Source: an uncultured Clostridia bacterium
Lineage (GTDB): Bacteria; Bacillota; Clostridia; TANB77; CAG-508
NCBI GenBank assembly: GCA_944393385.1
Contig: CALYAA010000001.1
Location: forward strand, 48,221 to 112,220
Reading direction: 5' to 3'
DNA: 64,000 nucleotides
Part shown: positions 30,821 to 51,004 of the stretch, piece after piece
How the letters are laid out: each line of letters starts with the position of its first letter
Numbering within the stretch: position 1 is the first letter of the stretch
Translations under genes and position numbers: made by a program
Notes under the pieces: generated by a model
The model's input: only the letters and a program-made list of their open reading frames with translations
Databases searched by the model: none
What the model was told of the DNA's origin: nothing

Positions 30821-30828
30821 GAGTAAAT

Positions 30829-31764: not shown

Positions 31765-31774
31765 GGTGTGAAAG

Positions 31775-33220: not shown

Positions 33221-33229
33221 GTGATTTGA

Positions 33230-35230
33230 TTGAAAAAATTTATAAAAAAGATGCTAAAAAAAATAATTAAAGAAAATTTTTTGGTGAAACATATTGAATT
33301 GATAAAAATTAATTATAATAAACATAAACGTGTAACCAATTCAAAAAACGAAAATATTAAATATTTTATTAAAGAATGTTTAAAAATGAAATCATATCCT
33401 AGCAAAAAAACATATAAACTAATCAAAAGTATAGATGTGGAAATTGATTCAGAGAATCATTTTATCTACTTTATTGATACAATGAAGCAAATTAGAAAAA
33501 TTGACAGAATTATTGGAAATATTACAATAGATTATAATAGACTATTAACCAATAGCTTAAAAGATTTAGAAAATACCAATAACCAAAAAATTATTGAAGC
33601 AATAAAATATTTAGTTGGTAAAACAGAAAAAGAAATAGATAAAACCAAAAATAAATATGCTGAGCAAATTAAACAAAATTTAGAAGAAATAAAAACAACA
33701 AAATCTACTACATTTTATTCTGCACTACAACGTATTTTATTTTATAATCAATTATTATGGCAAACTGGTCATAGACTAAATGGATTAGGCAGATTAGATA
33801 AAATTTTGGAACCTTTTTATGAAGAAGATTTAAAAAATGGAAAAATAACAAAAGAAACAGCAAAAGAGCTGATAAAAGATTTCTGTGCAATATTACACAA
33901 ATATTATTGGTTTAAAAGTAATGTATTGATGGGAGATACTGGACAAATAATTATATTAGGCGGAAAAGAGGAAAATAATTTATATTTTTGTAATGATTTA
34001 ACATATCTTTTTATAGAAGTTATGAAAGAATTGCAAATTCCAGACCCAAAAGTATTATTACGAGTGAGTAATAATATGCCAAAAGATTTGATGGAACTTT
34101 CAATAAAATGTGTTCAAACAGGAATAGGTTGTCCATTATTTTCAAATGATGATGTAGTAATACCTAAATTAATTGAATTCGGATATCCTGAAGAAAGTGT
34201 CTATGATTATGTAACTGCTGCTTGTTGGGAACCAATTATGCCAGAAAAAACATTAGATCAAACCAACATAACTACAATAAATTTTCTAAATCCTTTTCAT
34301 GAAATGCTGGAAAAAGAAGAATTAAATAAAATAAAAACTACAGAAGAAATTTTGGAAATATATACTAAATATTTGAAAAATTATTGTGATGACATTGTTA
34401 AAGTTTTAGATAAAGTAAAATGGCAATATGACCCACTATTATCTTTTATGACAGAAGGATGTGAAAAAGAAGATATTTCATGTGGTACTGCAAAATATAA
34501 TCATTATGGAGTTAATTCAGTAGGGCTTGCTAGTACTGTAAATTCTATTTTAAACATTGAGAGTTTAGTTTTTAATAAAAAAGAATTTACTTTGGAAGAG
34601 CTAAATAATGCTAGAAAAAATAATTATTATGATAAAGACATTAATTTTGTTAAAATGTTAAAGAACCAAGATAAAAAATATGGAAAAGACGATGAACAAG
34701 TAATTGAACTTACTAATTATATTACAAATGTTGCTAATGAACAATTTTCTAAATATAAAAATAAGTTTGGAGGAAAAATAAAATTTGGATTAAGTTCACC
34801 TGGTTATATATCAGAGGCAGAGAAAACTGATGCATCACTAGATGGAAGAAAAGCCAAGGAACCTTTTGCTGTTCATATTTCATCTGATGATAGTCAAGCT
34901 TATACAGAGTTAGTTCAATTTGCAAGTAAATTAGATTATACGGGGAATCGTTTTAATGGAAATGTTGTTGATTTTATGGTTTCACCAGATTTTATAGAAA
35001 ACAATTTTAGAAAATTTGTAGATTTTATGATGGCAAGTATCAAAGTCGGATTTTTTCAAATGCAGATGAATGTTGTAAGTAGTAAAATGCTGATAGAAGC
35101 AAGAAAGAATCCAGATAAATTTCCAAATTTGATTGTTAGAGTATGGGGATTCAGTGCTTATTTTAATGATTTACCGGAAGAATATAAAGATGTATTAATT
35201 GAAAGGGCATTGAAAAATGAAGGAAAATGA
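33230..35230 (+). CDS. Glycyl radical enzyme, Cys-X-Glu (eliminase/dehydratase-like) class, unusually short (666 aa)
   Basis: C-terminal glycyl-radical fingerprint IVRVWGFSAYF (Gly codon 35147-35149); putative thiyl loop TAACWEP (Cys 34223-34225); TTG start with AGGTGA RBS. Confidence 0.75.
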   Translation: MKKFIKKMLKKIIKENFLVKHIELIKINYNKHKRVTNSKNENIKYFIKECLKMKSYPSKKTYKLIKSIDVEIDSENHFIYFIDTMKQIRKIDRIIGNITIDYNRLLTNSLKDLENTNNQKIIEAIKYLVGKTEKEIDKTKNKYAEQIKQNLEEIKTTKSTTFYSALQRILFYNQLLWQTGHRLNGLGRLDKILEPFYEEDLKNGKITKETAKELIKDFCAILHKYYWFKSNVLMGDTGQIIILGGKEENNLYFCNDLTYLFIEVMKELQIPDPKVLLRVSNNMPKDLMELSIKCVQTGIGCPLFSNDDVVIPKLIEFGYPEESVYDYVTAACWEPIMPEKTLDQTNITTINFLNPFHEMLEKEELNKIKTTEEILEIYTKYLKNYCDDIVKVLDKVKWQYDPLLSFMTEGCEKEDISCGTAKYNHYGVNSVGLASTVNSILNIESLVFNKKEFTLEELNNARKNNYYDKDINFVKMLKNQDKKYGKDDEQVIELTNYITNVANEQFSKYKNKFGGKIKFGLSSPGYISEAEKTDASLDGRKAKEPFAVHISSDDSQAYTELVQFASKLDYTGNRFNGNVVDFMVSPDFIENNFRKFVDFMMASIKVGFFQMQMNVVSSKMLIEARKNPDKFPNLIVRVWGFSAYFNDLPEEYKDVLIERALKNEGK

Positions 35231-36386
35231 GAAAGGTAGAATTCTTTTATATGATACTTTGAAATTATTAGCAATTCTTTTAGTAATTATAGGACATACA
35301 ACATATATAAACATAAAAGTAAAATATGGATTTGGAGCTTATTTTGAACCAGAATATTATTCGGATTTTTATAAAATGATGCTAAAAATTGTCCAATTTA
35401 TTTATCAATTCCATATGCCATTATTTATATTTATCTCAGGAGCTTTATTTTATAAGGAAATTAATAAAGAAAATTTTTCATTTGAAAACCTTCTAAATAA
35501 AAAAATTAAATCTTTATTAATACCTTATTTGGCATATGGAATTTTATATACAATTATGGTAAAATTAATAGCAGGATATTATAGTTTTGATAATTTGCCA
35601 TACGTAGTTATATATGAAGTTTTATTGGGACAAAATACTACACAACATATTTGGTTTTTGCCTACTCTATTTTTCATTACAATAATGTTTTATGTAGTAT
35701 ATATTACATTAAAAAAGGATAAAAAGTTACTTACAATATTCTTTATAATAATGTCATTATTTATGTTGCAAATAAATGTAACTTTTCCAGGAGTGAAATA
35801 TTTCACTAAATTATTTCTATTTTTTGGTTTAGGTTGCTTTTTTGAAGATATAAGAGTTAAATTTGAAAAGTTTAGCTACAAAAGAGAAATTGTACTTTTT
35901 ATAATATGTTCTGCTTTATCTTTGATATTATATAAAATACTAATAAATATAAAAAGTATATTTGTTAAGGACATAATAGACATATTATTTATTATAATAG
36001 CAATTTTTGTATGTATAATTATTTCTATTATGATTACCAAAATAAAAAGAATTAGAAATTGTAATTTATACAAAAAGATTCTAGATTATTCATTTGAGAT
36101 TTATGTTTTAGGAGATCCTATAAATTATATTATTTTACAATTGATTACAATTTTTAATTTGGGATATTTATACCAAACAAATATTGGAAGTTTTGTAATT
36201 ATTGCTATAAGAAGTATAGGTGTACTAATTATATCAATTCTTATAGCACAAGTAATTAGAAAACTAAAAAAATATGAAAAGTTTAATAAGATTGTAAAAA
36301 TAGCATTATTTTTTATAATAGTAATTTCAATAATAATTGTAATTTGTAATTCATTATTAGGAATTATACCAATTACATATAAATAA
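35217..36386 (+). CDS. Acyltransferase family 3 membrane O-acyltransferase
   Basis: LKLLAILLVIIGHTTY motif, about 10 TM helices; overlaps the GRE stop by 14 nt. Confidence 0.75.
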   Translation: MKENEKGRILLYDTLKLLAILLVIIGHTTYINIKVKYGFGAYFEPEYYSDFYKMMLKIVQFIYQFHMPLFIFISGALFYKEINKENFSFENLLNKKIKSLLIPYLAYGILYTIMVKLIAGYYSFDNLPYVVIYEVLLGQNTTQHIWFLPTLFFITIMFYVVYITLKKDKKLLTIFFIIMSLFMLQINVTFPGVKYFTKLFLFFGLGCFFEDIRVKFEKFSYKREIVLFIICSALSLILYKILINIKSIFVKDIIDILFIIIAIFVCIIISIMITKIKRIRNCNLYKKILDYSFEIYVLGDPINYIILQLITIFNLGYLYQTNIGSFVIIAIRSIGVLIISILIAQVIRKLKKYEKFNKIVKIALFFIIVISIIIVICNSLLGIIPITYK

Positions 36387-36399
36387 ATAGGAGAAAAAA

Positions 36400-37158
36400 A
36401 TGTTAATAACTAATATACAACGATTTTCTTTACATGATGGACCGGGGATTAGAACTACAGTATTTCTTAAAGGTTGTAATTTGAGATGCCCATGGTGTGC
36501 TAATCCAGAAAACCTATCATTTCAAAAGGAAGAATATGTTAAAGATGGTATTAAAGGCATTTATGGTTACGAAATAAGTGGAGAAGAACTAGAAAAGGAA
36601 ATTCTAAAAGATAAAATTTATTATGAAGATGGTGGAGGAGTTACTTTTTCTGGAGGAGAAGCATTGCTAGCATTCAAAGAATTGGAACCATTGCTAAAAA
36701 AATTAAAGGAAGATAAAATTAACATATGTGTGGAAACAGCTTTAATGGTAAAAAATGAATTATTAGAAATAGCATTAAATTATGTAGATTTATTTATTAT
36801 TGATATTAAAATATTAGATGACTCATATAGCAAAGAAATAATTGGAGGAAAAGTTCAACTATATAAAGATAATATTGACAGAGTATTTAAAGCAAATAAG
36901 AAATTTATATTTCGAATACCACTAATTAAACCATATACTTGTAATGAAGCAAATTTAAATGAAATATATTCTTTAATACAACAATATCCACCAGAAAAAT
37001 TAGAAATTTTTAAGGTTCATAGATTAGCTGAAAATAAATATAAATCTTTAAATAAGAAAATGATTGAAATACAAGAAGAAGTTACAGAACAAGATATGAA
37101 GAAAATAAAAAAGGATATTGAGAAATTTGCTATTAATGTTGATATTTGTAAATTATAG
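36400..37158 (+). CDS. Glycyl-radical enzyme activating enzyme (radical SAM)
   Basis: QRFSLHDGPGIRTTVFLKGCNLRCPWCANPE, a canonical GRE-activase N-terminus with CX3CX2C. Confidence 0.85.
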   Translation: MLITNIQRFSLHDGPGIRTTVFLKGCNLRCPWCANPENLSFQKEEYVKDGIKGIYGYEISGEELEKEILKDKIYYEDGGGVTFSGGEALLAFKELEPLLKKLKEDKINICVETALMVKNELLEIALNYVDLFIIDIKILDDSYSKEIIGGKVQLYKDNIDRVFKANKKFIFRIPLIKPYTCNEANLNEIYSLIQQYPPEKLEIFKVHRLAENKYKSLNKKMIEIQEEVTEQDMKKIKKDIEKFAINVDICKL

Positions 37159-37169
37159 AAAGGAAAAGA

Positions 37170-38306
37170 TTGATAATGGAAAAATATGATTATTTAATTG
37201 CAGGCTCTGGTCTATTTGGAGCAATATTTGCATATGAAGCAAATAAAAAAGGAAAAAAATGCTTGGTAATAGACAAGCGTTCACATATTGGAGGAAACAT
37301 TTATACAGAAAATATAGATGGAATAAATGTACACAAATATGGAGCACACATATTTCATACAAGCAATAAAGAAGTATGGGAATATATTAATCAATTTGCA
37401 GAATTTAATAGATATACAAATTCACCAGTAGCAAGATATAAAGACGAATTATATAATATGCCATTTAACATGAATACATTTAATAAGTTATGGGGAGTAA
37501 TTACACCTGCAGAAGCAAAAGCTAAAATAGAAGAAGAAAAGAAAGAAGCAGGAATAACAGAACCAAAAAATTTAGAAGAACAAGCTATAAGTTTAGTTGG
37601 AAAAACAATATATGAAAAATTAGTAAAAGGCTATACAGAAAAGCAATGGGGGCAAAGGGCAACAGAACTTCCAAGCTTTATAATAAAAAGACTACCAGTA
37701 AGATTTATTTATGATAATAATTATTTTAATGATATTTATCAAGGAATACCAATTGGAGGATATACACCAATTATAGAAAAAATGCTAGATGGTATAGAAG
37801 TAAAATTAAATTGTGATTTCTTTGAAAATAAAGAAGAGCTAGAAAATATTGCAGAAAAAATTGTATTTACAGGACAAATTGATAAATATTATGATTATAA
37901 ATTTGGAGAACTAGAATATAGAAGCTTAAGATTTGAAACCGAAACTCTAAACGAAGAAAATCACCAAGGAAATGCAGTTGTAAATTATACAGAATATGAA
38001 GTACCTTATACAAGAATTATAGAACATAAACATTTTGAATATGGAGCAAGTCTTGGAAAATTAGCAGAAGGACAAGCAGCAACTAAAACAATTATTACAA
38101 AAGAATATCCAGATAAATGGAGCAAAGAAAAAGAACCATATTATCCAATTAACAATGATAGAAACAATGCATTATATGAAAAATATAAAGAATTAGCAGA
38201 TAATGACAATAAAGTAATATTTGGTGGAAGATTAGGACAATATAAATATTATGATATGGATAAAGTTATTGCAGAAGCATTAAAACTTTCAAAAAATGAG
38301 TTATAA
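37170..38306 (+). CDS. glf: UDP-galactopyranose mutase
   Basis: YDYLIAGSGLFGAIFA FAD motif, HKYGAHIFHT, C-terminal GRLGQYKYYDMD. Confidence 0.9.
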   Translation: MIMEKYDYLIAGSGLFGAIFAYEANKKGKKCLVIDKRSHIGGNIYTENIDGINVHKYGAHIFHTSNKEVWEYINQFAEFNRYTNSPVARYKDELYNMPFNMNTFNKLWGVITPAEAKAKIEEEKKEAGITEPKNLEEQAISLVGKTIYEKLVKGYTEKQWGQRATELPSFIIKRLPVRFIYDNNYFNDIYQGIPIGGYTPIIEKMLDGIEVKLNCDFFENKEELENIAEKIVFTGQIDKYYDYKFGELEYRSLRFETETLNEENHQGNAVVNYTEYEVPYTRIIEHKHFEYGASLGKLAEGQAATKTIITKEYPDKWSKEKEPYYPINNDRNNALYEKYKELADNDNKVIFGGRLGQYKYYDMDKVIAEALKLSKNEL

Positions 38307-38320
38307 GAAAGAGGTATATT

Positions 38321-39373
38321 ATGGGAAAACATAACGAAGAAAAGAAAAAAAGCAAAGGACTAAAAATATTTTTAAGAGTATTATTAATATTATTAATCAT
38401 AATAGTAATAATAGCAGGAATAGCAGTTGGGTATGTAACAAACAAACTTGGAAAAATAACAGTAGAAGAAATAGATGAAACAGCCATAGGAATTGATGAA
38501 GAAACCCAAGAAAGGCTTTCTGGATACAGAAACATAGCATTACTAGGAATAGACAGCAGAGAAGATGACTACGGAGTTGGAAATAGAAGTGACTGTATAA
38601 TAATAGCAAGTTTAGATGAAAAAACAAAACAAATAAAACTAATTTCAGTATATAGAGACACATATATGCAAATTGAAGAAAAAGGAAAACAAGTTCTAGA
38701 TAAAGTAACACATGCTTATGCATATGGAGGAGCTCAAAATACATTAAAAGCTTTAAATACAAATTTAGACTTAAATATTACAGAATATGTTACAGTTAAC
38801 TTTGATGCAGTTATATCAGCAGTTGATGCAATGGGTGGAGTAACAATAAATATAGATAGTTCGGAAATAGAATATATAAATGATTATATTAAATCTACAT
38901 CACAAAGCTCAGGAATAAGTTCAAATGCTATAACAAAGGCAGGTTCACAAACATTAGATGGTGTACAAGCAGTTGCATACTCAAGAATAAGATATACATC
39001 TGGTGGAGACTATAAGAGAACTGAAAGAATGAGAACTGTAATAGAAGCTATGCTAAATAAAGCAAAAACCTTAAGTATTAGTCAATTAAATAAACTAATT
39101 GATACAGTATTACCTAGAGTAAGTACAAATATATCTGGTGCAGAAATATTAGGATTAGTACCAAGTATTACTTCATATTCAATATCAGATAGTATAGGAT
39201 GGCCATATAAAACAGAAGGTATAACATTAGATAGATGGTATGGAGTTCCAGTAACACTTGAAAGTAATGTTTTACAATTGCATCAAGAAGTATTTGGACA
39301 AACAGATTATGTTGTAAATGATACTATTAAAAATATAAGTCAACAAATAATAAATAAAACAGGAAAGAAATAA
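38321..39373 (+). CDS. LytR-CpsA-Psr (LCP) family glycopolymer-to-peptidoglycan ligase
   Basis: N-terminal TM helix, then LLGIDSRED...SDCIIIASLD...ISVYRDTY. Confidence 0.85.
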   Translation: MGKHNEEKKKSKGLKIFLRVLLILLIIIVIIAGIAVGYVTNKLGKITVEEIDETAIGIDEETQERLSGYRNIALLGIDSREDDYGVGNRSDCIIIASLDEKTKQIKLISVYRDTYMQIEEKGKQVLDKVTHAYAYGGAQNTLKALNTNLDLNITEYVTVNFDAVISAVDAMGGVTINIDSSEIEYINDYIKSTSQSSGISSNAITKAGSQTLDGVQAVAYSRIRYTSGGDYKRTERMRTVIEAMLNKAKTLSISQLNKLIDTVLPRVSTNISGAEILGLVPSITSYSISDSIGWPYKTEGITLDRWYGVPVTLESNVLQLHQEVFGQTDYVVNDTIKNISQQIINKTGKK

Positions 39374-39381
39374 TAATTAAA

Positions 39382-39410
39382 GGCGGAAAATTTTTCCGCC
39401 TAAGTTTTTA
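39382..39410. terminator. Terminator closing the polysaccharide cluster (bidirectional)
   Basis: AGGCGGAAAATTTTTCCGCCT followed by AAGTTTTTA. Confidence 0.8.
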
Positions 39411-39438: not shown

Positions 39439-40152
39439 CTACTCAACCACCTCAAACAAACCAAACCCCTGAGAATTCCTATTACCCAAGCCACAGTCAT
39501 ACAAAAAAGACAAATAATCAGGAGAGCCACCCAATATAAAATTACCCTTCCAAGCAGTAATATAAACATTTTTCAAAGAAGTCACAACCTTATCAGAAGA
39601 AGAAACACAAGTAGTAATAATTTCAACATCAGAAAAAGGAGCAGTATTATAATAAGACAAAAACTTTTTACAAAAATTATTATTTATATATTGCTCAAAA
39701 TCTTTATCCTGAGGAGAAAGATAAACAGTTTTATTATCCTCAACTCTTTTAGACAAACAAATAGGAGAATTCATTTTAATATCAATACTATTTTCTCTAA
39801 TAACCCTATTTTCCAATTTCAAACTTACAGGAAAATTTTCAGTTCCAAAAGTAATTCCATTACATTTCAAATATTCATAAACAAGAAAAATAAAATAGCT
39901 ATCAACACTCCTTATTTCCAAAAAAACATTTCCAGTAAAAGTAATCCTTTTATTACTAATTGAATGTTTTCCACATAATGAACTAAAAGTAAAAAGCTTA
40001 AAATTTGATTCATTTTGTCCAACATCATGCAATAATTTTTGATAATGAATATCATTAGACAAAGCAGTATAAATTACGCCTTGTAAAATATGAGAATAAT
40101 TAATAGGTAAAGTCAAATTTCTATTTAAATTTATATAAACTTTTAATTGCAT
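39439..40152 (-). CDS. cas6: CRISPR-associated endoribonuclease Cas6
   Basis: Start MQLKVYINLNRNLTLPINYSHILQGVIY with a GGAGGAG RBS; C-terminal Gly-rich loop GLGNRNSQGFGLFEV; the track's longer ORF starts at a TTG at 40170. Confidence 0.85.
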   Translation of the reverse strand: MQLKVYINLNRNLTLPINYSHILQGVIYTALSNDIHYQKLLHDVGQNESNFKLFTFSSLCGKHSISNKRITFTGNVFLEIRSVDSYFIFLVYEYLKCNGITFGTENFPVSLKLENRVIRENSIDIKMNSPICLSKRVEDNKTVYLSPQDKDFEQYINNNFCKKFLSYYNTAPFSDVEIITTCVSSSDKVVTSLKNVYITAWKGNFILGGSPDYLSFLYDCGLGNRNSQGFGLFEVVE

Positions 40153-40239
40153 AATAATAATCTCCTCCAAAATATTAGTTCAATTATATCACATAAAAAT
40201 AAAAAAACAACAAAAACTATTTAATATTTAAATACATTA

Positions 40240-40248
40240 TGGTATAAT
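40240..40248 (+). promoter_or_regulatory. Extended -10 element (TGgTATAAT) in the divergent cas6 / NTPase intergenic region
   Basis: TGGTATAAT 39 nt upstream of the 40287 start. Confidence 0.4.
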
Positions 40249-40286
40249 TAAACAGACTTAATATAAAAATAAAAGAGGAAAATAAA

Positions 40287-42923
40287 ATGGAAAAATTAAA
40301 TCAAGAAACATATTCAAAACAATTCACAGACAGAGTAGAAGCAAGAGAGCTATTTTGGAAAGAATACCAAAAATTAAGCACTGAAATAAATGAGGGAAAA
40401 ACAGGAACCGACCCCACACAAACCAACCCCAAATTAATTAACTATTATGGAATTGGAGGAATGGGAAAAACCACATTAATAAACCAATTAATAAAAGAAC
40501 TTTCAAAAAATGACAAAGAAAATTTGTCAATATTTATTGATGCCGAAGATTTCAATAATACACTAGATGTTTTATATTCAATCAGAAATATTTTAAATGA
40601 AAACTACAAAATAAAATTCAACAAATTTGATCTAGCACTAATTATCTATTTAAAAAAAGTAGGAAAAAGTCAAGAATCTCCAGAAATAAAAGACATATTA
40701 AATAGTAATCCTATAGCAAAATTAATAGGAGACACAATTTCAAATGTATCTATTCCAATGTTATTAATAAAAAATGGATTAGACAAACTAATAAGTATAG
40801 GCATGAGTCAAAGGTACAAAAAATTTGTTCAAAGTATAGAAATAGAACAATTACCAAATAACATATTAGAAAACTTGCCACAATATCTTGCAGATGACAT
40901 AAATGAATATTTAAAAGGAAAAAACAAAAAAATAATATTCTTCTTCGATACATTCGAAAAATTAGATGAAAGCACAATAGGAAGTACAGCAACATTAAAT
41001 AAAACAAAATGGTTATATAATATTCGTAATACAGGAATAATAAACGAAATAAAAAACAGCATATTTGTAATAGGAAGTAGAGAAAAAATAAATGAAATTC
41101 CGGGAATTAAATATTTTAAACTAGATAAGTTTGATGAAAAATATTCATATGAATATTTAAATAATGCTGGTATTAAAGATATTAATTTATGTAAAGAAAT
41201 ATTTAATAAATATACAAATGGAATGCCATTAATGCTTAGTACATGTGTAGACAGTTATAATATAGAATCACATGAATTATTTGTACAAAATATATCTGAT
41301 AGCAGTCAAGGAATAATAGAAAGACTAATAGGAAGTTTAGACTTAGATAGTCAAGCACTAGTATATTTCTTAAGTTGTGTAAAAAAGTGGAATGATAAAT
41401 TCATTATAAAAAACGCTCCAAAATGTCTAGAAAACTTTTCAAGCTATAGATATGAAAGTATAAAAAAATTATCATTTATAACCAAAGACTTACAAGGAAA
41501 CTACACATTTGACAAAACAATTCGTATGATACTACATAGTGAAAATAATGAATTTGTAAATAATATGAAATACATAATTCAAAAAACAAATAAATTTCTA
41601 ATAGATTACTATAAAGAAATATTAGAAAACAGTAATTCAACAATAACAGAAAAAAATACAGCATTAAACCAATATATAAAAAGAAAAATTTTATTAGAAA
41701 ATAACCCAAAAGAACTAATAAATGACTATAAATTTATCAAAATACATTTAAAAGAACTAGAAGAACTGTTTTTATTTGACGATTTATCAAAACATCTAAA
41801 CAGATTACTTGAAAAATATAATAATATTATAGAAGTTAAAAATTCAATAATAGAAGAACAAATTAATATATTATATTTATCAGGTCAATATAAAGAAGAA
41901 GAATCAAAATCAAAACAATATTTTGACTTAGATCCAAAAAACACAAGAGCAATTGAAAAACTAGCAATTGCATATATGCATAACAGCAAATACAAATTAG
42001 CTAATGAAAAAATTAATGAAGTTTTAAACCAAACAGAAAAAACAGACCTAAAAAATTATATAAGAGTATTAATGGAAGCATCAGAAATCAAATCTCGAAT
42101 GGGTGAATATAATACAGTATTAGAAAATTACATATGGATAAAGAAAAAACTAAATACAATATATGAAAAAAATGATTTATCTAAAAAAGAACTTGAAATA
42201 GAAAGACTTATAGCCAAAACATATTCATATATGGGAGATTATAAAAAAGCAATAGAAAATTATAAAAAAATATTAAATATAAATGGAGATGAAGTTATAC
42301 AATTAGAACAAAATAAAGAAATTTTAACAATTGATGAATTAAATTTTTACAATGATTTAAGTAATACATATTCAAACAATAATGAATTTGAAAAGGCACT
42401 AAAAATAAAAGAAAAACTTTTAGAAATATATACAGAAATATTAGGAGAAAACCACCCTTGGACACTAAATGTAAAAAATGATATAGGAATGATTAAGTCA
42501 CATCAAAAAAACTATGAAGAAGCAATTAAAATCTTAAAAGAAACATATGAAGCAAGAAAACAAGTTTTAGGAGAAGAGCACTTATCTGCAATTGCAACAT
42601 TAAATAATTTAGCAATTGTTAAAGTATTTTATGCAGATGGCTTAACAGATGAGCTTAAGAAAAAAGAAATATATACAGATTCTTTGTTACAACTTGAAAC
42701 TGTATACAAAATAAGAAAAAATAATTTAGGTGAAAACCATCCAAGTACATTAAGAACATTATTTAATATTTCAAAAAATTTAAAAGAACTTGGAAGAAAG
42801 CAAGAAGCATTACAAATAGCACAAAAACTTTACGAAACCAGAAAAAGTACTTTGGGAGAAGAAAATCAAGAAATAGTAAAAACAAAACAATTAATTGACG
42901 AAATTAATTCTTTAAATGCCTAA
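40287..42923 (+). CDS. STAND/NB-ARC-like P-loop NTPase with a C-terminal TPR array
   Basis: Walker A GIGGMGKTT (40450-40476), Walker B-like IIFFFDTFEKLDE, and a C-terminal about 350 aa of TPR-like repeats (NHPWTLNVKNDIGMI, EEHLSAIATLNNLAIV, ENHPSTLRTLFNISK). Confidence 0.75.
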   Translation: MEKLNQETYSKQFTDRVEARELFWKEYQKLSTEINEGKTGTDPTQTNPKLINYYGIGGMGKTTLINQLIKELSKNDKENLSIFIDAEDFNNTLDVLYSIRNILNENYKIKFNKFDLALIIYLKKVGKSQESPEIKDILNSNPIAKLIGDTISNVSIPMLLIKNGLDKLISIGMSQRYKKFVQSIEIEQLPNNILENLPQYLADDINEYLKGKNKKIIFFFDTFEKLDESTIGSTATLNKTKWLYNIRNTGIINEIKNSIFVIGSREKINEIPGIKYFKLDKFDEKYSYEYLNNAGIKDINLCKEIFNKYTNGMPLMLSTCVDSYNIESHELFVQNISDSSQGIIERLIGSLDLDSQALVYFLSCVKKWNDKFIIKNAPKCLENFSSYRYESIKKLSFITKDLQGNYTFDKTIRMILHSENNEFVNNMKYIIQKTNKFLIDYYKEILENSNSTITEKNTALNQYIKRKILLENNPKELINDYKFIKIHLKELEELFLFDDLSKHLNRLLEKYNNIIEVKNSIIEEQINILYLSGQYKEEESKSKQYFDLDPKNTRAIEKLAIAYMHNSKYKLANEKINEVLNQTEKTDLKNYIRVLMEASEIKSRMGEYNTVLENYIWIKKKLNTIYEKNDLSKKELEIERLIAKTYSYMGDYKKAIENYKKILNINGDEVIQLEQNKEILTIDELNFYNDLSNTYSNNNEFEKALKIKEKLLEIYTEILGENHPWTLNVKNDIGMIKSHQKNYEEAIKILKETYEARKQVLGEEHLSAIATLNNLAIVKVFYADGLTDELKKKEIYTDSLLQLETVYKIRKNNLGENHPSTLRTLFNISKNLKELGRKQEALQIAQKLYETRKSTLGEENQEIVKTKQLIDEINSLNA

Positions 42924-42950
42924 AATCTGGTATAAGAAAGGAAACAAAAT

Positions 42951-43907
42951 ATGACAGAAATAGAACAAAAAATTCTTAACACAAAAGAAAGTAAAATAGT
43001 ATTAACAGAAAATATAGAAGAAGCAGATTTAATAACACATAATGGAACATTTCATTCTGATGAAGTTTTTAGTACAGTATTACTTTCCAATGTTCTGAAA
43101 AAAGATATATTAAAACTATGTAGAACTTCAAATATAAAAGAAGGTATAACTGGATTTGTATATGATGTAGGCTATGGAAAATATGATCACCATCAACCAG
43201 GGGGAAATGGAGAAAGAAAAAACGGAATAAAATATTCTTCATTTGGATTAGTATGGAGGGATTTTGGAAAAGACTACTTAAAACAACTAAATTGCTTACA
43301 AATTGAAGAAGTATGGTCTATGGTAGACAAAAAATTAGTACAAAATATAGATGCAATAGATAATGGTCAACTTGGGAAATTGACACAATTTGATTTTGAA
43401 GTAGTAACACTACCAAATTTAATTTCAATGTATAATTCTAATTGGGATGATGAACAAGCAAATCAAAATGAAATGTTTTTAAAAGCTGTGCAATTTGCAC
43501 AAACAGTTTTTGATAGATTTATAATAAGTGTAGTATCAAAAATTAGAGCAAAATCTAGAGTAGAAGATGCAATAGAAAATTCTAAAAATCAAATTTTAAT
43601 ATTAGAAAAATTTATGCCATGGAAAGAATTTCTATTAGATTCTGAAAATGAAAAGGCAAAAAATATTTTATTTGTAGTGTTCCCGTCAAATAGAGGTGGA
43701 TATAATGTATATGCTGTTCCAAAAGAAAATGGAAGTTTTGAATCTAGAAAATTATTTCCAGCAAAATGGGCAGGTTTAAAAGATGAAGAACTTTCAAAAA
43801 TTTCCGGGGTTGCAACAGCAACATTTTGCCATACAGGAAGATTTATATGTGCAACCAGAACAAAAGAAGATGCAATTAAAATTGCAAGAATAGCAGTAGA
43901 AGCATGA
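42951..43907 (+). CDS. MYG1/UPF0160-family metal-dependent hydrolase (predicted 3'-5' exonuclease or phosphodiesterase)
   Basis: Signature ITHNGTFHSDEVFS (43038-43064) and DHHQ; 318 aa. Confidence 0.7.
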   Translation: MTEIEQKILNTKESKIVLTENIEEADLITHNGTFHSDEVFSTVLLSNVLKKDILKLCRTSNIKEGITGFVYDVGYGKYDHHQPGGNGERKNGIKYSSFGLVWRDFGKDYLKQLNCLQIEEVWSMVDKKLVQNIDAIDNGQLGKLTQFDFEVVTLPNLISMYNSNWDDEQANQNEMFLKAVQFAQTVFDRFIISVVSKIRAKSRVEDAIENSKNQILILEKFMPWKEFLLDSENEKAKNILFVVFPSNRGGYNVYAVPKENGSFESRKLFPAKWAGLKDEELSKISGVATATFCHTGRFICATRTKEDAIKIARIAVEA

Positions 43908-43921
43908 AAGGAAAAATAAAA

Positions 43922-45700
43922 ATGAATAAAAGATATCTAATAACTGGAGTAAGCGGGGTAGATCCATATACAAATATATATTTAGTACCACAAATAATTA
44001 CAGAAAAAATAATAGATGATGGAAGTAAAATAGAAATAAAGTACAAAAATAATAAAGATACTAAAATTCCACAAGAAGTAAAATTAGATGAAATTTTTAT
44101 AGATGGTTCAATGCTTAACATATTAAGAAAATATATAAAAAATGGTAATCCAATTACAGATATATATATTTATTTAACACAAGAAATGAAAAAAAGAACA
44201 CAAATTTATGAAACATCAATAAAAAATCTATATGAAAGTAATGGTATTAATAATTTTAATATAGTATTTTACCCAAATGATTTTTATGAAGAGTGTGAAG
44301 AAAGATTTAGAGCAGATGATGTGCAAAAATTTGCATCATATTACAAGGAAATTTATGAAATATATTCTAAAATTATAAAACAAGGTAATTCAGATGAGAT
44401 AATACTTAATATTTCATCTGGAACACCAGCATTTAAAGCAGATATGATGATTATGGCAGTTACAAACAATTTGAAAATTGAGCAAACAGCAAATTCTATT
44501 GAAAGTAAAGATTTAAAAAATTATGTTATGCAAAAAGAAAAAGTACTATATGATGATATTAAGCAAAAATTAGAAGATGCTAAATTAAATTATAAAGATG
44601 CAAAAACAAAAATACAAATTGAATCAAGACAGATAAAAGATTTTCAATTAGACAAAATTAATGAACAATTAGATTTTTTAAATGAAACAGAAAATTCCTT
44701 AGAAACAAGAACTTCAAGAGAAAGTATAGATGAAATAAAAAAGATAATATTGCTTGAAAGCATTGAAGATAGTATACAGAAAAAGGATTATTGTGGTATT
44801 TACTACAATTTAATAAGCAATGAACAATATTTAAAAAATAATAAACAAGAATTATTAGAAATAGCAGGAAATTTATATTATAGATATATTGGTAATGACG
44901 AAAAAGCAAAAAAAAGTATTCAAAATAATGAACAAAATAATTTAGAAAATTATTATCCAATTTATAAAGCAAATTCAATAAAAAATTGTACTGATGATGT
45001 TAAAGAAGATATAAATGCTATTATAGAAAAAAGTAATATTATGAAAATAAAATCTCAAAGAGAAGAAATAAATGATTGGTTACTTATTAGTACACCATTA
45101 ATAGAAGCAATTTCAAGTTTAATAGTAACTCAAAAAACTAAATTTGATTTTGAAAATATAATAAGTAAATCTAATAATAAAACAACAATTTCATTAAACT
45201 TATTTAATAAAACAGCACCAAAAGAAATAAAAGAAAGGTATGAAAAAGTTGTAAAAGAGAGTGATAATAATTTCTTAAATGCGTATTTCTATAAAAATAT
45301 AATTTTTCAAATGTTAAAAACAACTGATAAACAAGAAGAAAAAGACAATATAAACAAAATACTTGATTATATTTATATAGTAGATTTAGCAAGAACAGAA
45401 AGAGTATCTGCAGCACATAGTATTCAAAATATTAGCAAAAATGAATTTGAAAGATTATATAAAGATAAACTATTAAAACACAGTAGATATTATAGCTTAA
45501 AAAACATCACTCAAAATTATATAAACAAACAAGCAAACCAAAGCATAAAATGTGTTGAAAGAGCTGTAAAAGAATTAATTGCTAATATTTTACCAGATAA
45601 TAGTGAAGAAACAATCAAATGTTTTGAAGAAAGTATAAATATATATAATACACTAGAACAAAAAATTATTAAACTTTTAAAAGATGAAATATATAATTAA
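43922..45700 (+). CDS. CARF-HEPN protein (Csm6/Csx1-like)
   Basis: N-terminal CARF-like motifs RYLITGVSGVDP and LNISSGTPAFKADMMIMA; C-terminal HEPN-like R-X4-H (RVSAAH at 45401-45418); the track ORF begins 18 nt earlier. Confidence 0.65.
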   Translation: MNKRYLITGVSGVDPYTNIYLVPQIITEKIIDDGSKIEIKYKNNKDTKIPQEVKLDEIFIDGSMLNILRKYIKNGNPITDIYIYLTQEMKKRTQIYETSIKNLYESNGINNFNIVFYPNDFYEECEERFRADDVQKFASYYKEIYEIYSKIIKQGNSDEIILNISSGTPAFKADMMIMAVTNNLKIEQTANSIESKDLKNYVMQKEKVLYDDIKQKLEDAKLNYKDAKTKIQIESRQIKDFQLDKINEQLDFLNETENSLETRTSRESIDEIKKIILLESIEDSIQKKDYCGIYYNLISNEQYLKNNKQELLEIAGNLYYRYIGNDEKAKKSIQNNEQNNLENYYPIYKANSIKNCTDDVKEDINAIIEKSNIMKIKSQREEINDWLLISTPLIEAISSLIVTQKTKFDFENIISKSNNKTTISLNLFNKTAPKEIKERYEKVVKESDNNFLNAYFYKNIIFQMLKTTDKQEEKDNINKILDYIYIVDLARTERVSAAHSIQNISKNEFERLYKDKLLKHSRYYSLKNITQNYINKQANQSIKCVERAVKELIANILPDNSEETIKCFEESINIYNTLEQKIIKLLKDEIYN

Positions 45701-45719
45701 AAGAAAGAGAGGATTATAA

Positions 45720-47255
45720 ATGGAAGATAATAAACCATATATTGCAATTTATGATGTAAGAGGAATTCAAAATTACATATTCAGGACAAATGCTGTAAAA
45801 GAGATAATTGGTGCTTCTAAAATAGTTGACAAACTTATTATAAATGAATTTGCATATGCTACAAATAAAATTAAAACTGAGAAAGAAATTAAAGAAGATG
45901 AAATTGTATTAGATTGGGATAAACAAAAAGAGTATCTATTTGATACAAACTCAAATATAAAAATTGAAGTTTTATATTATGGAGGAGGAAATTTAGTAGT
46001 ATTATTTAGAAATGAGGAATTGTGCAAAACTATAAGTATAGAAATGGCAAAAAACATTATAAAAAATGCATATGGACTATCTTTGGTATATGCATATACA
46101 GAAAAAACACAAGATTATAATGATGATTGGGTAAAATTAAAGCAAAAATTGTCAGAAATAAAGGCTGTAACCTCACTAAATAAACCTGCTGGAATACTTC
46201 CAATAGTTAGATATGATGGTGTAACAGGAAAACCTTTATCAAAAAAATATGATGGTAAAATGGTTATTTATGAGGCATATCAAAAACTAAAAAAAGCAGA
46301 AGAAGTGGCTACAGAAAAAAGTGAATATATAAAAGAATTTGACAAAATGAGAACATCTAATGAAGAAGGTTTAATTGCAATTGTACATATTGATGGTAAT
46401 AGCATGGGTGCAAATATAAGAGAAATAATGAAAGATACAAATACATATCAAGAGGCAGTATGCAAAATGAGAGAAATCTCAAGAAATATTCATGAAGTTT
46501 TTGAAGTAAAAGCTATAAATAGTGTAAAAGAAAAAATAAATTATATATGTAAAAAACATGATATAGAAATAAAAAATAATGAATTACCATTTAGACCAAT
46601 TATACAGGCTGGTGATGATATTACATTTGTATGTAATGAGAGAATTGCATTAGATATTGTAAAAGAATATATAAATTCAATAAAAAAAGGTTTTATGTAT
46701 GAGCAAAAATATGAATTTAGTGCTTGTGCTGGAATTGCTATTGTACATAGTCATTTCCCATTTTATAAAGGATATCAAATTGCAGAACAATGTTGTGCAA
46801 TTGCAAAAATAAGAGCCAAAAATGAGGGAATGGTAAATGGTAAAATTGGCAACTTTGTGGATTTTGAATATTGCTATTCTGGTAATACAGTGGAATTAGA
46901 GGATTCTAGAAAAAGAAATTATTGCAATATAGAGGGAATTAATTTATTAAAAAGACCTTATGGAATTTATAATGAAGATGAAGTTTTAAATGAGACTCAA
47001 AAAAATTTTGATTTAAAAGTTTTTGAAGAAGATATGCAAATGTTAAAAGGTATTTCTAGAGGAACGGCAAAAGCTTTTAGAGATGTTTATTATAAAGAAA
47101 TTGCAATAGTTAATACATTATTTAAAAGACAAGAAATAAAAAATGGAATATCTTATAAAAATCCTTTTAAAGAGGTTAATGGCAAAAAATATGCAGAATA
47201 TTTTGATTGCTTAGAAATGTTAGATATATTTGGTGTAAAGGAGGAAGAAAAATAG
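45720..47255 (+). CDS. Minimal Cas10-like cyclase/polymerase palm-domain protein (no HD domain)
   Basis: IAIYDVRGIQNYIF and YYGGGNLVVLF (Cas10 palm-1-like); VHIDGNSMGANI and QAGDDITFV (palm-2 with GGDD-like AGDD at 46621-46629); 511 aa. Confidence 0.65.
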   Translation: MEDNKPYIAIYDVRGIQNYIFRTNAVKEIIGASKIVDKLIINEFAYATNKIKTEKEIKEDEIVLDWDKQKEYLFDTNSNIKIEVLYYGGGNLVVLFRNEELCKTISIEMAKNIIKNAYGLSLVYAYTEKTQDYNDDWVKLKQKLSEIKAVTSLNKPAGILPIVRYDGVTGKPLSKKYDGKMVIYEAYQKLKKAEEVATEKSEYIKEFDKMRTSNEEGLIAIVHIDGNSMGANIREIMKDTNTYQEAVCKMREISRNIHEVFEVKAINSVKEKINYICKKHDIEIKNNELPFRPIIQAGDDITFVCNERIALDIVKEYINSIKKGFMYEQKYEFSACAGIAIVHSHFPFYKGYQIAEQCCAIAKIRAKNEGMVNGKIGNFVDFEYCYSGNTVELEDSRKRNYCNIEGINLLKRPYGIYNEDEVLNETQKNFDLKVFEEDMQMLKGISRGTAKAFRDVYYKEIAIVNTLFKRQEIKNGISYKNPFKEVNGKKYAEYFDCLEMLDIFGVKEEEK

Positions 47256-49375
47256 TGAAAAAGAAATTACAAATAAAATTAAAAAGTGATTTATGTGCTG
47301 GATCAGGTGAAAGCTTAGGGAGTTTAATTGATACTGATATTTGTTATGATTGTTTTGGACTAGCATATATTCCTTCTAAAAGACTAAAAGGTTTATTAAA
47401 AGAAGCATTTATAGAATATTCTGATTGGGCAAAAAATGAAAATAATACAGAACTTTTTGATAAAATTAATAAAAACTTATTTGGAGTTGAAAATTCAAAT
47501 AATTCTAGTAATTTAAAAATAGATAATGCATATTTGGAAAATACAGATTTAATTGAAAATGAAATTCAAAATGTTGAAAATAGATATAAAAAATATTTAA
47601 CCAAACAAAGAATAATAAATTTAAATACAGATATAAGATATCAAACAGCTGTTGTAATTGAAAGTGGTGTTGCAAAAGAAAATTCTTTAAGAAATATAAG
47701 AATTATAGAAGCAGGAAATATTTTTGAGGCTATTCTAGAATGTGATACTGAAGAAGAATCACAAATATTAGAAAAATGTGTTAAATTAGTAACACATATG
47801 GGAAATAATAGAACAAGAGGATTTGGTGAAATAGAATGTAAGCTTTTGGATATGGAAGAGGAAAATCAGGAATATGTAACACATAAATTCGAACCAGAAA
47901 AAGAATATGAGATTAAATTAATTCTAAAAGCTGAATCAAATATAATGGTATCAAAACAGTTTTCTGAAATTACTGAAAATTATATTCCTGGAAGTAATAT
48001 AATGGGTAGTTTTGCATCTAAATACATAAAAGATAATGATATAAATGATTTTGAAAATTTAACAGATGAATATATTAATTTATTTTTAAATGGAAATGTA
48101 AAATATTCAAATGCATATATTACAGAAAAAGATGGATATGTTCAATATTATCCTGCTCCATTAAGCTATTCAAAAGTTAAAAATAAAAGCAAAGTTTATC
48201 ATAATAAAATGTTTGACGTTAATGAAACTGATATACAACTTTCTAATTTTGGAGATAAATTTGTTACATTAGATGAAAACAATTATGTTAAAGAGGTAGA
48301 TACAATAGAACATTATCATCATCAAAGAGCAAAAGATTTATCAATAGGACATGTTTCAACAGGAAATGATGGAGGAACATTTTATCAATTTTTAAGTATA
48401 GAAAAAGGTCAATATTTTATGACCAGTATTAATGGAAAAGGTAAATATTTAGATAAATTAAGTAAATATTTAAAAGAAAATGAAATCTTAAGAGTTGGCA
48501 AATCTAAAACAGCTGAATATGGAAAACTAAAAATAACAAATATAAAAATTTCTGAAGATATAGAAAAAAGAAAAAAATATAATAAATTTGCAGTTATTTT
48601 AACTTCAGCTCTAATTTTATTAGATGAAGAAAATGTTCAAATTGCAAAAGATAAAGAAACACTTATAAAAACATTAAAAAATTTATTTAAAAACGAAAAT
48701 TTAAAAGATGTTAAATCATTTATAGGTTACACAGAAGAATCAGGATTTAATGCTATTTGGAATTTACCAAAAGAGCAAGTGGTTTCGTATTCGGCAGGGA
48801 CAACTATAGTTTTTGAATCATCAGAATCAATTGAATTAAAAGAAAAGTATATAATTGGAGAAAGAACAAATGAAGGATATGGACAACTAATTGTTTATTC
48901 TTTAGATGAAAAAAATGATTCTACATTAAAATTAAATGAATATAAACAAAACGAAAAAGAAATAGAATATAGTAAATTAAACAAAGAAACAAGAAAATTA
49001 CTTAATAAATCCATAAAAAAGGTAATTAATGAAGAAATATTAGAAAATGCTTTTAATACAGTTACATCAAATTATAATAAAGTAAATATAAATAATACAA
49101 CAATAGGAAGAATTTTATTAATGTTAAAAGAATCAAAAAATTATGCTGACTTTGATGAAAATGTAAATGGAATAAAAGATGTAAAAAAATTAGATAATGT
49201 TATAAAAATAATAGAAAATAAAGATAGAATATATTCTTTACAAGCATATAAAGATTATGAAGACGGATTAAAAAGTATTACAGGAGTAATACAAGAATCA
49301 GAAAAAGAAAAATTTATATTAGAATATATAAAACAATTTTTTACAATTTTAAAGATAATGGGAGGTAAAGAATAA
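47255..49375 (+). CDS. Large RAMP protein (Cas5/Csx10- or Cas7-like) with a C-terminal helical extension
   Basis: GTG start after an AAGGAGG RBS (the track ORF starts 48 nt earlier); N-terminal LCAGSG...YIPSKRLKGLLKEAF RAMP G-motif; Gly-rich loop NEGYGQL; the last about 150 aa are helical. Confidence 0.65.
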   Translation: MKKKLQIKLKSDLCAGSGESLGSLIDTDICYDCFGLAYIPSKRLKGLLKEAFIEYSDWAKNENNTELFDKINKNLFGVENSNNSSNLKIDNAYLENTDLIENEIQNVENRYKKYLTKQRIINLNTDIRYQTAVVIESGVAKENSLRNIRIIEAGNIFEAILECDTEEESQILEKCVKLVTHMGNNRTRGFGEIECKLLDMEEENQEYVTHKFEPEKEYEIKLILKAESNIMVSKQFSEITENYIPGSNIMGSFASKYIKDNDINDFENLTDEYINLFLNGNVKYSNAYITEKDGYVQYYPAPLSYSKVKNKSKVYHNKMFDVNETDIQLSNFGDKFVTLDENNYVKEVDTIEHYHHQRAKDLSIGHVSTGNDGGTFYQFLSIEKGQYFMTSINGKGKYLDKLSKYLKENEILRVGKSKTAEYGKLKITNIKISEDIEKRKKYNKFAVILTSALILLDEENVQIAKDKETLIKTLKNLFKNENLKDVKSFIGYTEESGFNAIWNLPKEQVVSYSAGTTIVFESSESIELKEKYIIGERTNEGYGQLIVYSLDEKNDSTLKLNEYKQNEKEIEYSKLNKETRKLLNKSIKKVINEEILENAFNTVTSNYNKVNINNTTIGRILLMLKESKNYADFDENVNGIKDVKKLDNVIKIIENKDRIYSLQAYKDYEDGLKSITGVIQESEKEKFILEYIKQFFTILKIMGGKE

Positions 49376-50634: not shown

Positions 50635-51004
50635 AGATGAAATAATTAATTTAATAAAAACTCAAAATATAGAAAATGCAAATGTTTTAGGAATTTTTTA
50701 TAATAAAGTTTGCATTGGCGAATTTAATAATAATGAAATTATTTTTAATGAAGAAGTTAATTATTCATTATGTAATCAAATTAGAGTTTTTAATAAAAAT
50801 CTGGAATTAAGAATAATAGAAAAAGATGGTAAAATTTTAAACAAAAAAATTGATGATAATTTTGGTATAGATTATTTTGATGAATCTATGTTTTTAAGAG
50901 ATAATTTTGATAAAAGATTAGTTGTAAGAAATTATTTGAATACAGATAAAAATAATCAAGTAATTATTAAAGATTCTAGACTAGTAGAATTTGTTTCAAA
51001 TTGA
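50627..51004 (+). CDS. Small protein in the effector operon (candidate small subunit or unknown)
   Basis: 125-130 aa ORF with a GGAGGTG RBS, between Cas7 genes; the track ORF begins at a TTG at 50612, and the GTG at 50627 used here is my inferred start; no recognisable motif. Confidence 0.4.
   Translation: MNKDEIINLIKTQNIENANVLGIFYNKVCIGEFNNNEIIFNEEVNYSLCNQIRVFNKNLELRIIEKDGKILNKKIDDNFGIDYFDESMFLRDNFDKRLVVRNYLNTDKNNQVIIKDSRLVEFVSN

Follow-up and report, generated by a model that had tools for sequence, protein, structure and literature searches.

The window analyzed here is a stretch of 64,000 nucleotides from an uncultured Clostridia bacterium (contig CALYAA010000001.1), and the gene under study is a plus-strand open reading frame (ORF) with an ATG start, at positions 40287 to 42923 of the window, that encodes a predicted STAND (NB-ARC-like)-TPR protein of 878 amino acids (aa). 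A previous reading of the DNA letters alone (the sequence-only reading) had placed this gene between cas6 and the effector operon of a type III CRISPR locus, and Pfam, PADLOC, and NCBIfam confirmed that placement. The assignment of the gene draws on the reading frame itself, its homologues, the predicted fold, and selection; since full-length homologues formed 17 clusters and since the ratio of nonsynonymous to synonymous substitution (dN/dS) was 0.15 to 0.24, the ORF is not a chance frame. From the analysis described below, the gene seems to be an accessory component, not described before, of this CRISPR lineage.

Motifs and domain layout of the STAND-TPR protein

The layout proposed in the sequence-only reading, in which an N-terminal P-loop is followed by a helical region and a C-terminal TPR array, with almost no N-terminal effector domain, was borne out by Pfam, by alignment, and by structure prediction. 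The P-loop, GIGGMGKTT, occupies residues 55 to 63 (Walker A; 40449 to 40475, plus strand). In an alignment of 12 homologues, Walker A (with G55, G57, G58, G60, and K61), the Walker B residues FFFD together with E224, the sensor-1 arginine, and the GxP motif were all invariant. When 41 members of the wider family were compared, G55, G58, G60, and K61 were again invariant (41/41). Within the Walker B region, IFFFDTFEKLD (aa 217 to 227; 40935 to 40967, plus strand), D221 was found in all 41 and E224 in 40 of the 41, and a search for the hhhhD pattern of Walker B found FFFD (aa 218 to 221) invariant in 41/41 relatives. The same members had an invariant R265 in a sensor-1 or RNBS-B-like S-R-E motif (aa 264 to 266; 41076 to 41084, plus strand; 41/41) and an invariant G312 and P314 in the GxP (GLPL-like) motif G-M-P (aa 312 to 314; 41220 to 41228, plus strand; 41/41). 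A departure from the wider family was found in the winged-helix domain at the MHD-like position, F-D-K (aa 408 to 410; 41508 to 41516, plus strand), where Asp stands in place of the family His: the residue was Asp (Asp409 in the window protein) in 12 of 12 members of the narrow subfamily described below and His in 35 of the 41 broad-family members. In STAND proteins, the MHD-type histidine of the winged-helix domain contacts ADP. From the placement of F-D-K after the beta-hairpin of the modeled winged-helix domain, we infer that it is the equivalent of the NB-ARC MHD histidine.

The NB-ARC profile of Pfam matched aa 46 to 257 at 24.2 bits, compared to a gathering cutoff of 23.5 bits (E value, 2.4e-05), and at an E value of 0.001 or lower this profile matched only 18 of the 41 wider-family relatives. 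The C-terminal part gave strong Pfam matches at about aa 540 to 870 (TPR_12, 5.7e-34; TPR_10, 2.1e-26), and the NCBIfam matches on the protein were confined to it. The TPR array as a whole spans about aa 535 to 878 (41889 to 42920, plus strand) and is made of 42-residue repeats of the kinesin light chain type; in profile searches it matched the TPRs of KLC1 and KLC2 at 2e-41, and the model confidence (pLDDT) over the array was about 90. Ahead of the P-loop strand, about 45 residues form a single helix with the pattern FTDRxEAR..F. Because a helix of the FTDRxEAR type is the usual element before a STAND P-loop, the protein is considered to be without an effector domain; indeed, no fused effector domain was found by Pfam, alignment, or model, the N terminus consisting of those roughly 45 residues only and the C terminus being all TPR. 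Pfam and NCBIfam detected no DNA-binding domain (HTH, LuxR-type, or SARP) in the protein, and there was no Pfam match to a CHAT domain. All nine proteins of the locus were scanned with PADLOC, and no defense model matched the STAND protein. As to a non-defense ATPase family with housekeeping synteny, which the sequence-only reading had set against an immune role, no strong family match and no housekeeping synteny were found; matches to Bac_DnaA, AAA_22, and FtsY (Pfam, NCBIfam) were marginal and covered the P-loop only.

An AF2 model of aa 1 to 470 (pLDDT, 78; pTM, 0.79) contained a nucleotide-binding domain, a helical domain, and a winged-helix domain, which together form a NOD (nucleotide-binding oligomerization domain) module at aa 1 to 460 (40287 to 41666, plus strand; AF2 model and Foldseek). 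About 130 aa of extra helices, part of them at low model confidence, separate strand 2 from the Walker B strand. With the NOD-only model, the best Foldseek match was 6mfv, the archaeal STAND-TPR protein PH0952 (5.9e-06; TMq, 0.45), followed by NLRP2, CED-4, NRC2, Apaf-1, Avs3 (8dgc), and ZAR1, within a range of 6e-06 to 5e-04. The full-length model, whose C-terminal half is confidently modeled as a TPR superhelix, also had 6mfv as its best match (1.4e-10). A sequence-profile search with the NOD against the PDB gave matches at the level of the P-loop only, the best being a plant NB-ARC (E value, 0.001). By its modeled fold, the window protein comes closest to PH0952-type STAND-TPR proteins. PH0952 (6mfv; Lisa et al. 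2019, PMC6468293) has the same order of NOD and then TPR arm and likewise has no enzymatic effector domain, but it is only 14 to 15% identical to the window protein, which has the extra helices before Walker B and carries Asp where the MHD-like His is expected; moreover, no CRISPR context is reported for PH0952.

The type III-D locus

Divergent from the STAND-TPR gene lies cas6 (39439 to 40170, minus strand; Cas_Cas6_C, 7.3e-31; TIGR01877, 4.9e-34; PADLOC Cas6b, 7.9e-57). The 116-bp intergenic region between the two genes contains a promoter-like site on the plus strand (40221 to 40248; TTAATA, a 16-nucleotide spacer, and a TG-extended TATAAT), 39 nucleotides 5' of the STAND start codon. Among plus-strand matches between 39300 and 46000, this site was joint best (10/12) and the sole 10/12 match with a TG extension; the total of promoter-like sites in the region was not above the shuffled expectation, and the site is known from its match to the consensus alone. 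Directly 5' of the STAND start codon is an AG-rich ribosome-binding site.

On the plus strand, the STAND stop codon is followed, after a 27-nucleotide gap that contains a ribosome-binding site, by a gene for a MYG1/UPF0160 (DHH-superfamily) hydrolase (42951 to 43907; Pfam MYG1_exonuc, 4.6e-73), which overlaps the start of a gene for a Csm6-like CARF-HEPN effector (43904 to 45700; TIGR02672, 4e-28; PADLOC CARF_HEPN, 6.7e-22; Pfam Cas_Csm6_CARF, 6.3e-09). The R-x4-H motif RVSAAH is present in the translation of the latter. Then come the genes for Cas10d (45720 to 47255, plus strand; 511 aa; PADLOC Cas10d, 4.3e-115; Pfam Cas10 palm2, 2e-10), a Cas7-Cas5 (Csx10) fusion (47207 to 49375, plus strand; PADLOC Cas5_IIId, 2.9e-171; NCBIfam TIGR03984 in the subunit block), a double Cas7 (49375 to 50634, plus strand; PADLOC Cas7_IIId, 1.9e-116), Csx19 (50612 to 51004, plus strand; PADLOC Csx19, 2.7e-14), and, at the end of the operon, a large Cas7 (TIGR03986; 51034 to 53115, plus strand; PADLOC Cas7_IIId, 1.5e-137). 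The locus is assigned to type III-D from the presence of Cas10d, a Csx10-type Cas5, Csx19, and multiple Cas7 proteins (PADLOC, NCBIfam TIGR03984 and TIGR03986). No terminator-like site was found in any intergenic gap, the sole plus-strand match within the operon lying inside the MYG1 coding sequence. Because of the promoter-like site before it, the 27-nucleotide gap with its ribosome-binding site, the MYG1/Csm6 overlap, and the lack of an intergenic terminator-like site, the STAND gene appears, on the spacing of the genes and the motif scans, to head an operon that runs STAND-MYG1-Csm6-Cas10d-Cas7/Cas5.

No HD domain was detected in the window Cas10d. Its cyclase motif reads AGDD and not GGDD (IIQAGDDITF; 46600 to 46640, aa about 295 to 305), as does that of the homologue in a related locus, L097. 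A Csm6-like effector is present although Cas10d has this AGDD motif and no detected HD domain.

Linkage of the STAND gene with type III-D systems

A word-indexed search returned the 17 clusters of full-length homologues, at 42 to 98% identity, and one further cluster at 29%. The 17 clusters form a narrow subfamily of three clades, of which A and B are the CRISPR-linked part. Clade A (64 to 98% identity) contains the window and loci L001 to L003, L009/L010, L013, L017, and L018, with the gene order cas6 (minus strand), STAND, MYG1, Csm6, and Cas10d. A fuller arrangement is found in L017 (clade A, 72%), where an array is followed by cas6 (minus strand), a 149-aa ORF, a SpaA-like gene, Y, a 121-aa ORF, STAND, X, MYG1, a 60-aa ORF, Csm6, and Cas10d. 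In clade B (42 to 46% identity; L007, L008, L011, L012, and L016), the genes from Cas10 through the large Cas7 are followed by a CRISPR array, cas6 (minus strand), STAND, two X genes, Y, a sigma-like gene, and a rhomboid gene; the sigma-like protein (104 aa) matched Sigma70_r3 at 26.3 bits against a cutoff of 25.3 bits, a marginal match covering only 41 residues. The order in clade C (53 to 57% identity; L004 to L006 and L015) is AAA_14/DUF4143, MazG-like, Y, X (minus strand), STAND, Z, and SpaA-like. The X family shares a C-terminal domain of about 105 residues that ends in ...LLRCLID...G.YIYYP. At an E value of 1 or lower, Pfam yielded no credible family for X, Y, or Z, and no PHROGs match was obtained for STAND, X, Y, or Z. 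In the operon that follows STAND in clade B (L012, 3799 to 7056; L007, 12349 to 15627), one of the two X paralogues has an N-terminal transmembrane helix. In these gene orders, the recurrent partners of STAND are X, Y, Z, and the SpaA-like (membrane) protein, with the rhomboid and sigma-like proteins added in one clade, and the window locus is probably a reduced version that lost X, Y, Z, and the SpaA-like, rhomboid, and sigma-like genes.

Clades A and B, which are 43% identity apart, both adjoin cas6 and type III-D genes, in different arrangements. In a neighbor-joining tree of the NOD, clades A and C grouped together with a support of 198/200 and clades A, B, and C with a support of 200/200; thus, the CRISPR-linked clades A and B bracket the unlinked clade C. 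Identity of STAND to the window protein was 81, 72, 64, and 43% in L001, L017, L010, and clade B, respectively, and the corresponding values for Cas10 were 87, 85, 82, and 63%; the Cas7-Cas5 fusion was 79 to 80% identical in the three clade A loci and 58% identical in clade B. On these comparisons, STAND appears to diverge in step with the cas genes, with a similar order of identity loss to that of Cas10. Three further loci (L097 to L099) carry a III-D system intermediate between those of clades A and B (Cas10, 79% identical). These loci have neither STAND nor an upstream cas6, and Y and Z still lie directly 5' of MYG1-Csm6-Cas10d. Since Y and Z are kept at these STAND-less loci, the whole companion set appears to be tied to this III-D lineage.

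The STAND gene is under purifying selection, comparable to that on the cas genes: the dN/dS values given above, obtained with three orthologues, compare with 0.11 to 0.32 for cas genes. By part, dN/dS was 0.08 for the NOD and 0.25 for the TPR arm, which thus evolves three times faster. In the near-identical strains of L013 and L018, the cas6-STAND-MYG1-Csm6 block was 93 to 100% identical to the window (39439 to 47255 compared), versus 87% for Cas10 and 79% for the Cas7-Cas5 fusion. This drop in identity points to recombination, with a breakpoint that falls between csm6 and cas10 and a swap of the effector module, and since the 93-to-100% block includes STAND, the gene travels with the signaling/accessory block.

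The wider family

When the NOD was used by itself in an exhaustive phmmer search, 779 cluster representatives were found at an E value of 1e-3 or lower (116 at 1e-30), so the wider, uncharacterized family comprises 779 clusters or more at 50% identity. Among the 150 phmmer matches listed, nearly all start within about 50 residues of the N terminus, and lengths range from partial to 1,724 aa. TPR_12 repeats were found in 36 of the 41 members scanned in full, and PADLOC gave no Avs or other STAND defense model for any of these 41. A weak PADLOC CARF_HEPN match among the STAND relatives (1.6e-4) was spurious when compared to the window Csm6 by BLAST. For genomic context, 79 metagenomic loci were retrieved, and in about 60 of them the flanks were inspected. 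The commonest families among 141 flanking proteins were miscellaneous, mostly the products of ordinary metabolic genes; defense-type neighbors were few (TIR, 3; type I restriction-modification, 2; PIN, 2), giving only a faint defense-island flavor. Since no cas neighbors were found in the wider-family loci inspected, the CRISPR link belongs to the narrow subfamily only. Among the species representatives of GTDB, there was one close match only (the same or a sister metagenome-assembled genome) and one match at 29%, in Saccharibacteria. Even if the linkage with CRISPR were co-location only, these searches define a large effector-less STAND-TPR family that current defense-finder profiles miss.

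A predicted accessory switch and alternative explanations

The reading that we favor, with a probability of about 0.45, is that this effector-less NB-ARC-type STAND protein with a TPR sensor arm is a lineage-specific accessory nucleotide switch of one type III-D lineage in uncultured gut Clostridia. In favor of this reading are the linkage in two arrangements, the bracketing of clade C in the tree, the co-divergence with cas genes, the retention of Y and Z in L097 to L099, the place in the operon, purifying selection like that on the cas genes, the invariant catalytic motifs of the NOD, the shared block with cas6, MYG1, and Csm6 in near-identical strains, and the precedent of STAND-TPR NTPases at derived type I-E loci. 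The logic of the switch is drawn from the STAND literature and from the study of 6mfv (PMC6468293). At rest, the protein would be a closed, nucleotide-bound monomer whose NOD is held shut by the TPR arm. A protein ligand, which might be a phage protein or a Cas or accessory protein, would dock in the TPR superhelix, and docking would open the NOD and lead to nucleotide exchange and oligomerization; the oligomer would then serve as a hub for partners encoded by other genes, which it would recruit or activate. In the fuller loci, these partners may be X, Y, Z, and the SpaA-like membrane protein, to which one clade would add the rhomboid protein and the small sigma-70-region-3-like protein; in the window locus, the only co-transcribed candidates would be Csm6, MYG1, and the effector complex. 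The sequence-only reading had also raised the idea that the protein might regulate the CRISPR effector. Of that idea, a role tied to the effector is a better-supported direction than either a STAND-MYG1 pair or an Avs-like sensor, and regulation of the effector as such stands only at the level of a rival explanation, considered below.

In a bolder and rather improbable form of the switch reading, the STAND-TPR protein would be a true signaling subunit of this III-D system. The TPR arm would attach itself to the effector complex or to a component of the cyclic oligoadenylate (cOA) pathway, and recognition of target RNA would release an ATP-driven oligomeric hub with a second, nucleotide-independent output via X, Y, and Z, the rhomboid protein, and the sigma-like protein. 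The protein would then be an NLR-type counterpart of Craspase (Csx29-Csx30-RpoE) and of CalpL-CalpT-CalpS, and the His-to-Asp change would tune the switch to a Cas partner rather than to a free ligand.

Several observations weigh against an accessory switch of type III-D. The independent evolutionary events are few, amounting effectively to two linked arrangements and one unlinked. In clade C, no cas gene lies within 4 to 10 kb of STAND, and the MazG-like gene of this clade (L004, 2072 to 2419) is 77% identical to one beside the outgroup STAND gene P0018; together, clade C and this mobile-element outgroup indicate that the STAND module can live without CRISPR. A tblastn search of the whole window found none of X, Y, Z, or the sigma-like, rhomboid, and SpaA-like genes. 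Among the flanks of about 60 wider-family loci, there were no relatives of the window Cas proteins and no recurrent partner gene. Finally, a clade B STAND gene is frameshifted into ORFs of 68 and 777 aa in two independent samples (L007, 9777 to 12334; L008, 2831 to 5388), which suggests that STAND is dispensable in some loci, unless the split is an assembly error. The cas6 gene of L007 is also split (195 and 53 aa; 8888 to 9608). The split genes of L007/L008 reflect either decay or a homopolymer assembly error in AT-rich DNA.

The protein could instead be an autonomous NLR/Avs-like sensor of phage proteins, independent of CRISPR and co-located with it by the clustering of defense genes, which either acts through separate partners or is a partner-less remnant. 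We regard this main rival as unlikely, though by no means far-fetched. STAND plus TPR is the Avs architecture, the fold matches include Avs3 (8dgc), plant resistosomes, CED-4, and Apaf-1, and the faster evolution of the TPR arm is expected of a sensor. Clade C and P0018 lie in mobile-element cargo beside MazG-like, AAA_14/DUF4143, and recombinase genes, with no cas genes, and the neighbors of the wider family include the TIR, type I restriction-modification, and PIN proteins noted above. However, the Avs-like identity put forward in the sequence-only reading was not supported, in that the window protein has neither an effector domain nor a PADLOC match, to Avs or otherwise, and none of the 41 relatives matched an Avs model. 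The window holds no effector domain or partner genes through which such a sensor could act, and yet the gene is under purifying selection. Moreover, a first-gene position in the operon and divergence in step with cas genes across 43 to 98% identity would be unexpected from chance clustering, Y and Z remain with III-D where STAND was lost, and viral contigs scanned with the NOD alignment gave no relatives.

It is improbable that the protein is a MalT/AfsR-like regulator or an assembly/scaffold factor that controls cas expression or effector maturation, for instance via the sigma-like protein or Cas6. A place at the operon head, with the 116-bp divergent promoter region shared with cas6, would suit such a role, and STAND-TPR regulators do exist in MalT and AfsR (PMC10427625, PMC10936776); the sigma-like and rhomboid proteins of clade B also recall the outputs of CalpL-CalpT-CalpS and type III-E Csx29-Csx30-RpoE (PMC11229360). 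Nevertheless, HTH, LuxR, and SARP domains went undetected by Pfam and NCBIfam, sigma-like and rhomboid genes are missing from the window, and the sigma match in clade B is marginal and 41 residues long. In L017, four genes lie between cas6 and STAND, and therefore the sharing of a promoter region by these two genes is not conserved. That the gene encodes a non-defense signaling protein, or is a passenger in decay, and plays no part in immunity is more doubtful still: such a reading would agree with the mostly ordinary metabolic neighbors of the wider family and with the frameshift in L007/L008, but purifying selection, invariant catalytic motifs, the operon position, and the repeated linkage with cas genes speak against it.

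MYG1 and the Csm6-Cas10d module

The sequence-only reading had paired the STAND sensor with the MYG1-like hydrolase as a split two-gene cassette inserted in the type III locus; although the two genes are adjacent across the 27-nucleotide gap and keep this order in most clade A loci, the proposal is largely refuted by comparative context and is scarcely credible, given that X lies between them in L017, that no MYG1 lies beside STAND in clades B and C, that MYG1-Csm6-Cas10d occurs without STAND in L097 to L099, that a MYG1 of 56% identity has a housekeeping context, and that MYG1 was never beside STAND genes in the wider-family loci examined. MYG1-STAND adjacency is limited to part of clade A. 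In L097 to L099, a MYG1 of 63% identity lies directly 5' of Csm6-Cas10d (L097, 7001 to 11258), and the nearest unlinked MYG1, the one at 56%, lies among fatty-acid synthesis genes, FtsK-gamma, and NUDIX, with no cas genes. Since MYG1 stays with Csm6-Cas10d where there is no STAND, MYG1 goes with Csm6-Cas10 and not with STAND. From its distribution, MYG1 is probably a housekeeping-type DHH-superfamily hydrolase that was recruited to the Csm6-Cas10d module, rather than the effector of STAND. It is a candidate ring nuclease or a candidate clean-up nuclease for the turnover of cyclic or linear oligoadenylates. No link between MYG1/UPF0160 and CRISPR was found in the literature searched, and the presence of MYG1 upstream of Csm6-Cas10d is a side finding that may matter as much as the STAND gene.

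Relation to known systems

The closest system by concept has been described in Streptomyces, where derived type I-E loci have STAND-TPR NTPases linked to them (Shmakov et al. 2018, bioRxiv 10.1101/270033; PMC8730458; PMC13581612). These NTPases share with the window family a P-loop STAND NTPase with TPRs, a monophyletic branch, and a stable link to CRISPR effectors; small membrane proteins are often adjacent to them, and a signaling role was predicted. In contrast, the I-E-linked loci are without Cas3, adaptation genes, and arrays, whereas the partner in the window is an apparently complete III-D effector with Csm6, and related loci of the window family do have arrays. CRISPR type, host, and companion genes all differ, the comparison being one of descriptions and not of sequences. 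Avs1 to Avs5 (AVAST) also combine a STAND NOD with a C-terminal TPR-like sensor, and Avs3 is among the fold matches, but the window protein has neither the N-terminal effector domain nor a match to a PADLOC Avs profile. Type III-E Csx29 (TPR-CHAT)/Csx30/Csx31/RpoE and CalpL-CalpT-CalpS resemble the present loci in having a TPR-bearing accessory protein in a locus of the III-D/III-E lineage, and the clade B operon likewise has a rhomboid protease and a sigma-like protein. Unlike these systems, the window STAND protein has a P-loop NOD in place of CHAT, Lon protease, or SAVED/CARF domains, and neither a protease gene nor a sigma gene occurs in the window locus; the likeness is one of gene content and not of homology. 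MalT and AfsR share a NOD with a helical-repeat sensor and an inducer-controlled oligomerization switch but differ from the window protein, in which no DNA-binding domain was detected.

No description of an association between type III-D and STAND was found in the literature searched, and the text of the 2025 classification paper (PMC12669027) describes no type III STAND variant. All STAND NTPases with a CRISPR link described to date lie next to degenerate type I-E modules, and the mechanism is known for none of them; the present one goes with type III-D and has a partner set of its own. If the switch reading is true, a STAND-TPR switch co-inherited with an apparently functional cOA-signaling III-D system would add a new kind to the accessory genes of type III, and the unnamed partner set (X, Y, Z, and the SpaA-like, rhomboid, and sigma-like proteins) would be especially notable. 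The locus would also offer a tractable setting for the study of the wiring between NLR-like switches and RNA-guided immunity.

Other features of the window and related loci

P0018, the nearest outgroup (29%), encodes a STAND protein of 1193 aa and lies in an element with serine recombinases (L103, 156 to 15798). Its neighbors are genes for a thymidylate kinase, a MazG-like protein, a nucleoside deoxyribosyltransferase, a UDG-like protein, a PCRF-domain fragment, and a Sigma70_r2 protein.

No CRISPR array was found in the window with TRF, a repeat finder, a k-mer script, or the repeat of the related loci at 3 mismatches; no search aimed at cas1 or cas2 was made. In related loci, arrays are present beside cas6, with the repeat GTTTCAAATCTCTAATGAGTAAGGTAAAAC (L007, 6766 to 8837; L017, 1 to 256). 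The L017 array (1 to 256) is made of identical 64-nucleotide units, and therefore the same spacer is repeated. The L007 array is split by a 1,066-bp insertion, with some spacers duplicated on both sides, and a gene of the Y family (291 aa) and an ORF of 45 aa lie inside the array (L007, 7109 to 8219; also L008, 135 to 1231).

Upstream in the window, 29522 to 39373 is a surface-polysaccharide cluster that includes UDP-galactopyranose mutase-like, LytR-CpsA-Psr, acyltransferase, and radical-SAM activase genes. The CRISPR island lies directly 3' of this cluster, with a strong bidirectional terminator at 39381 to 39401 between them.

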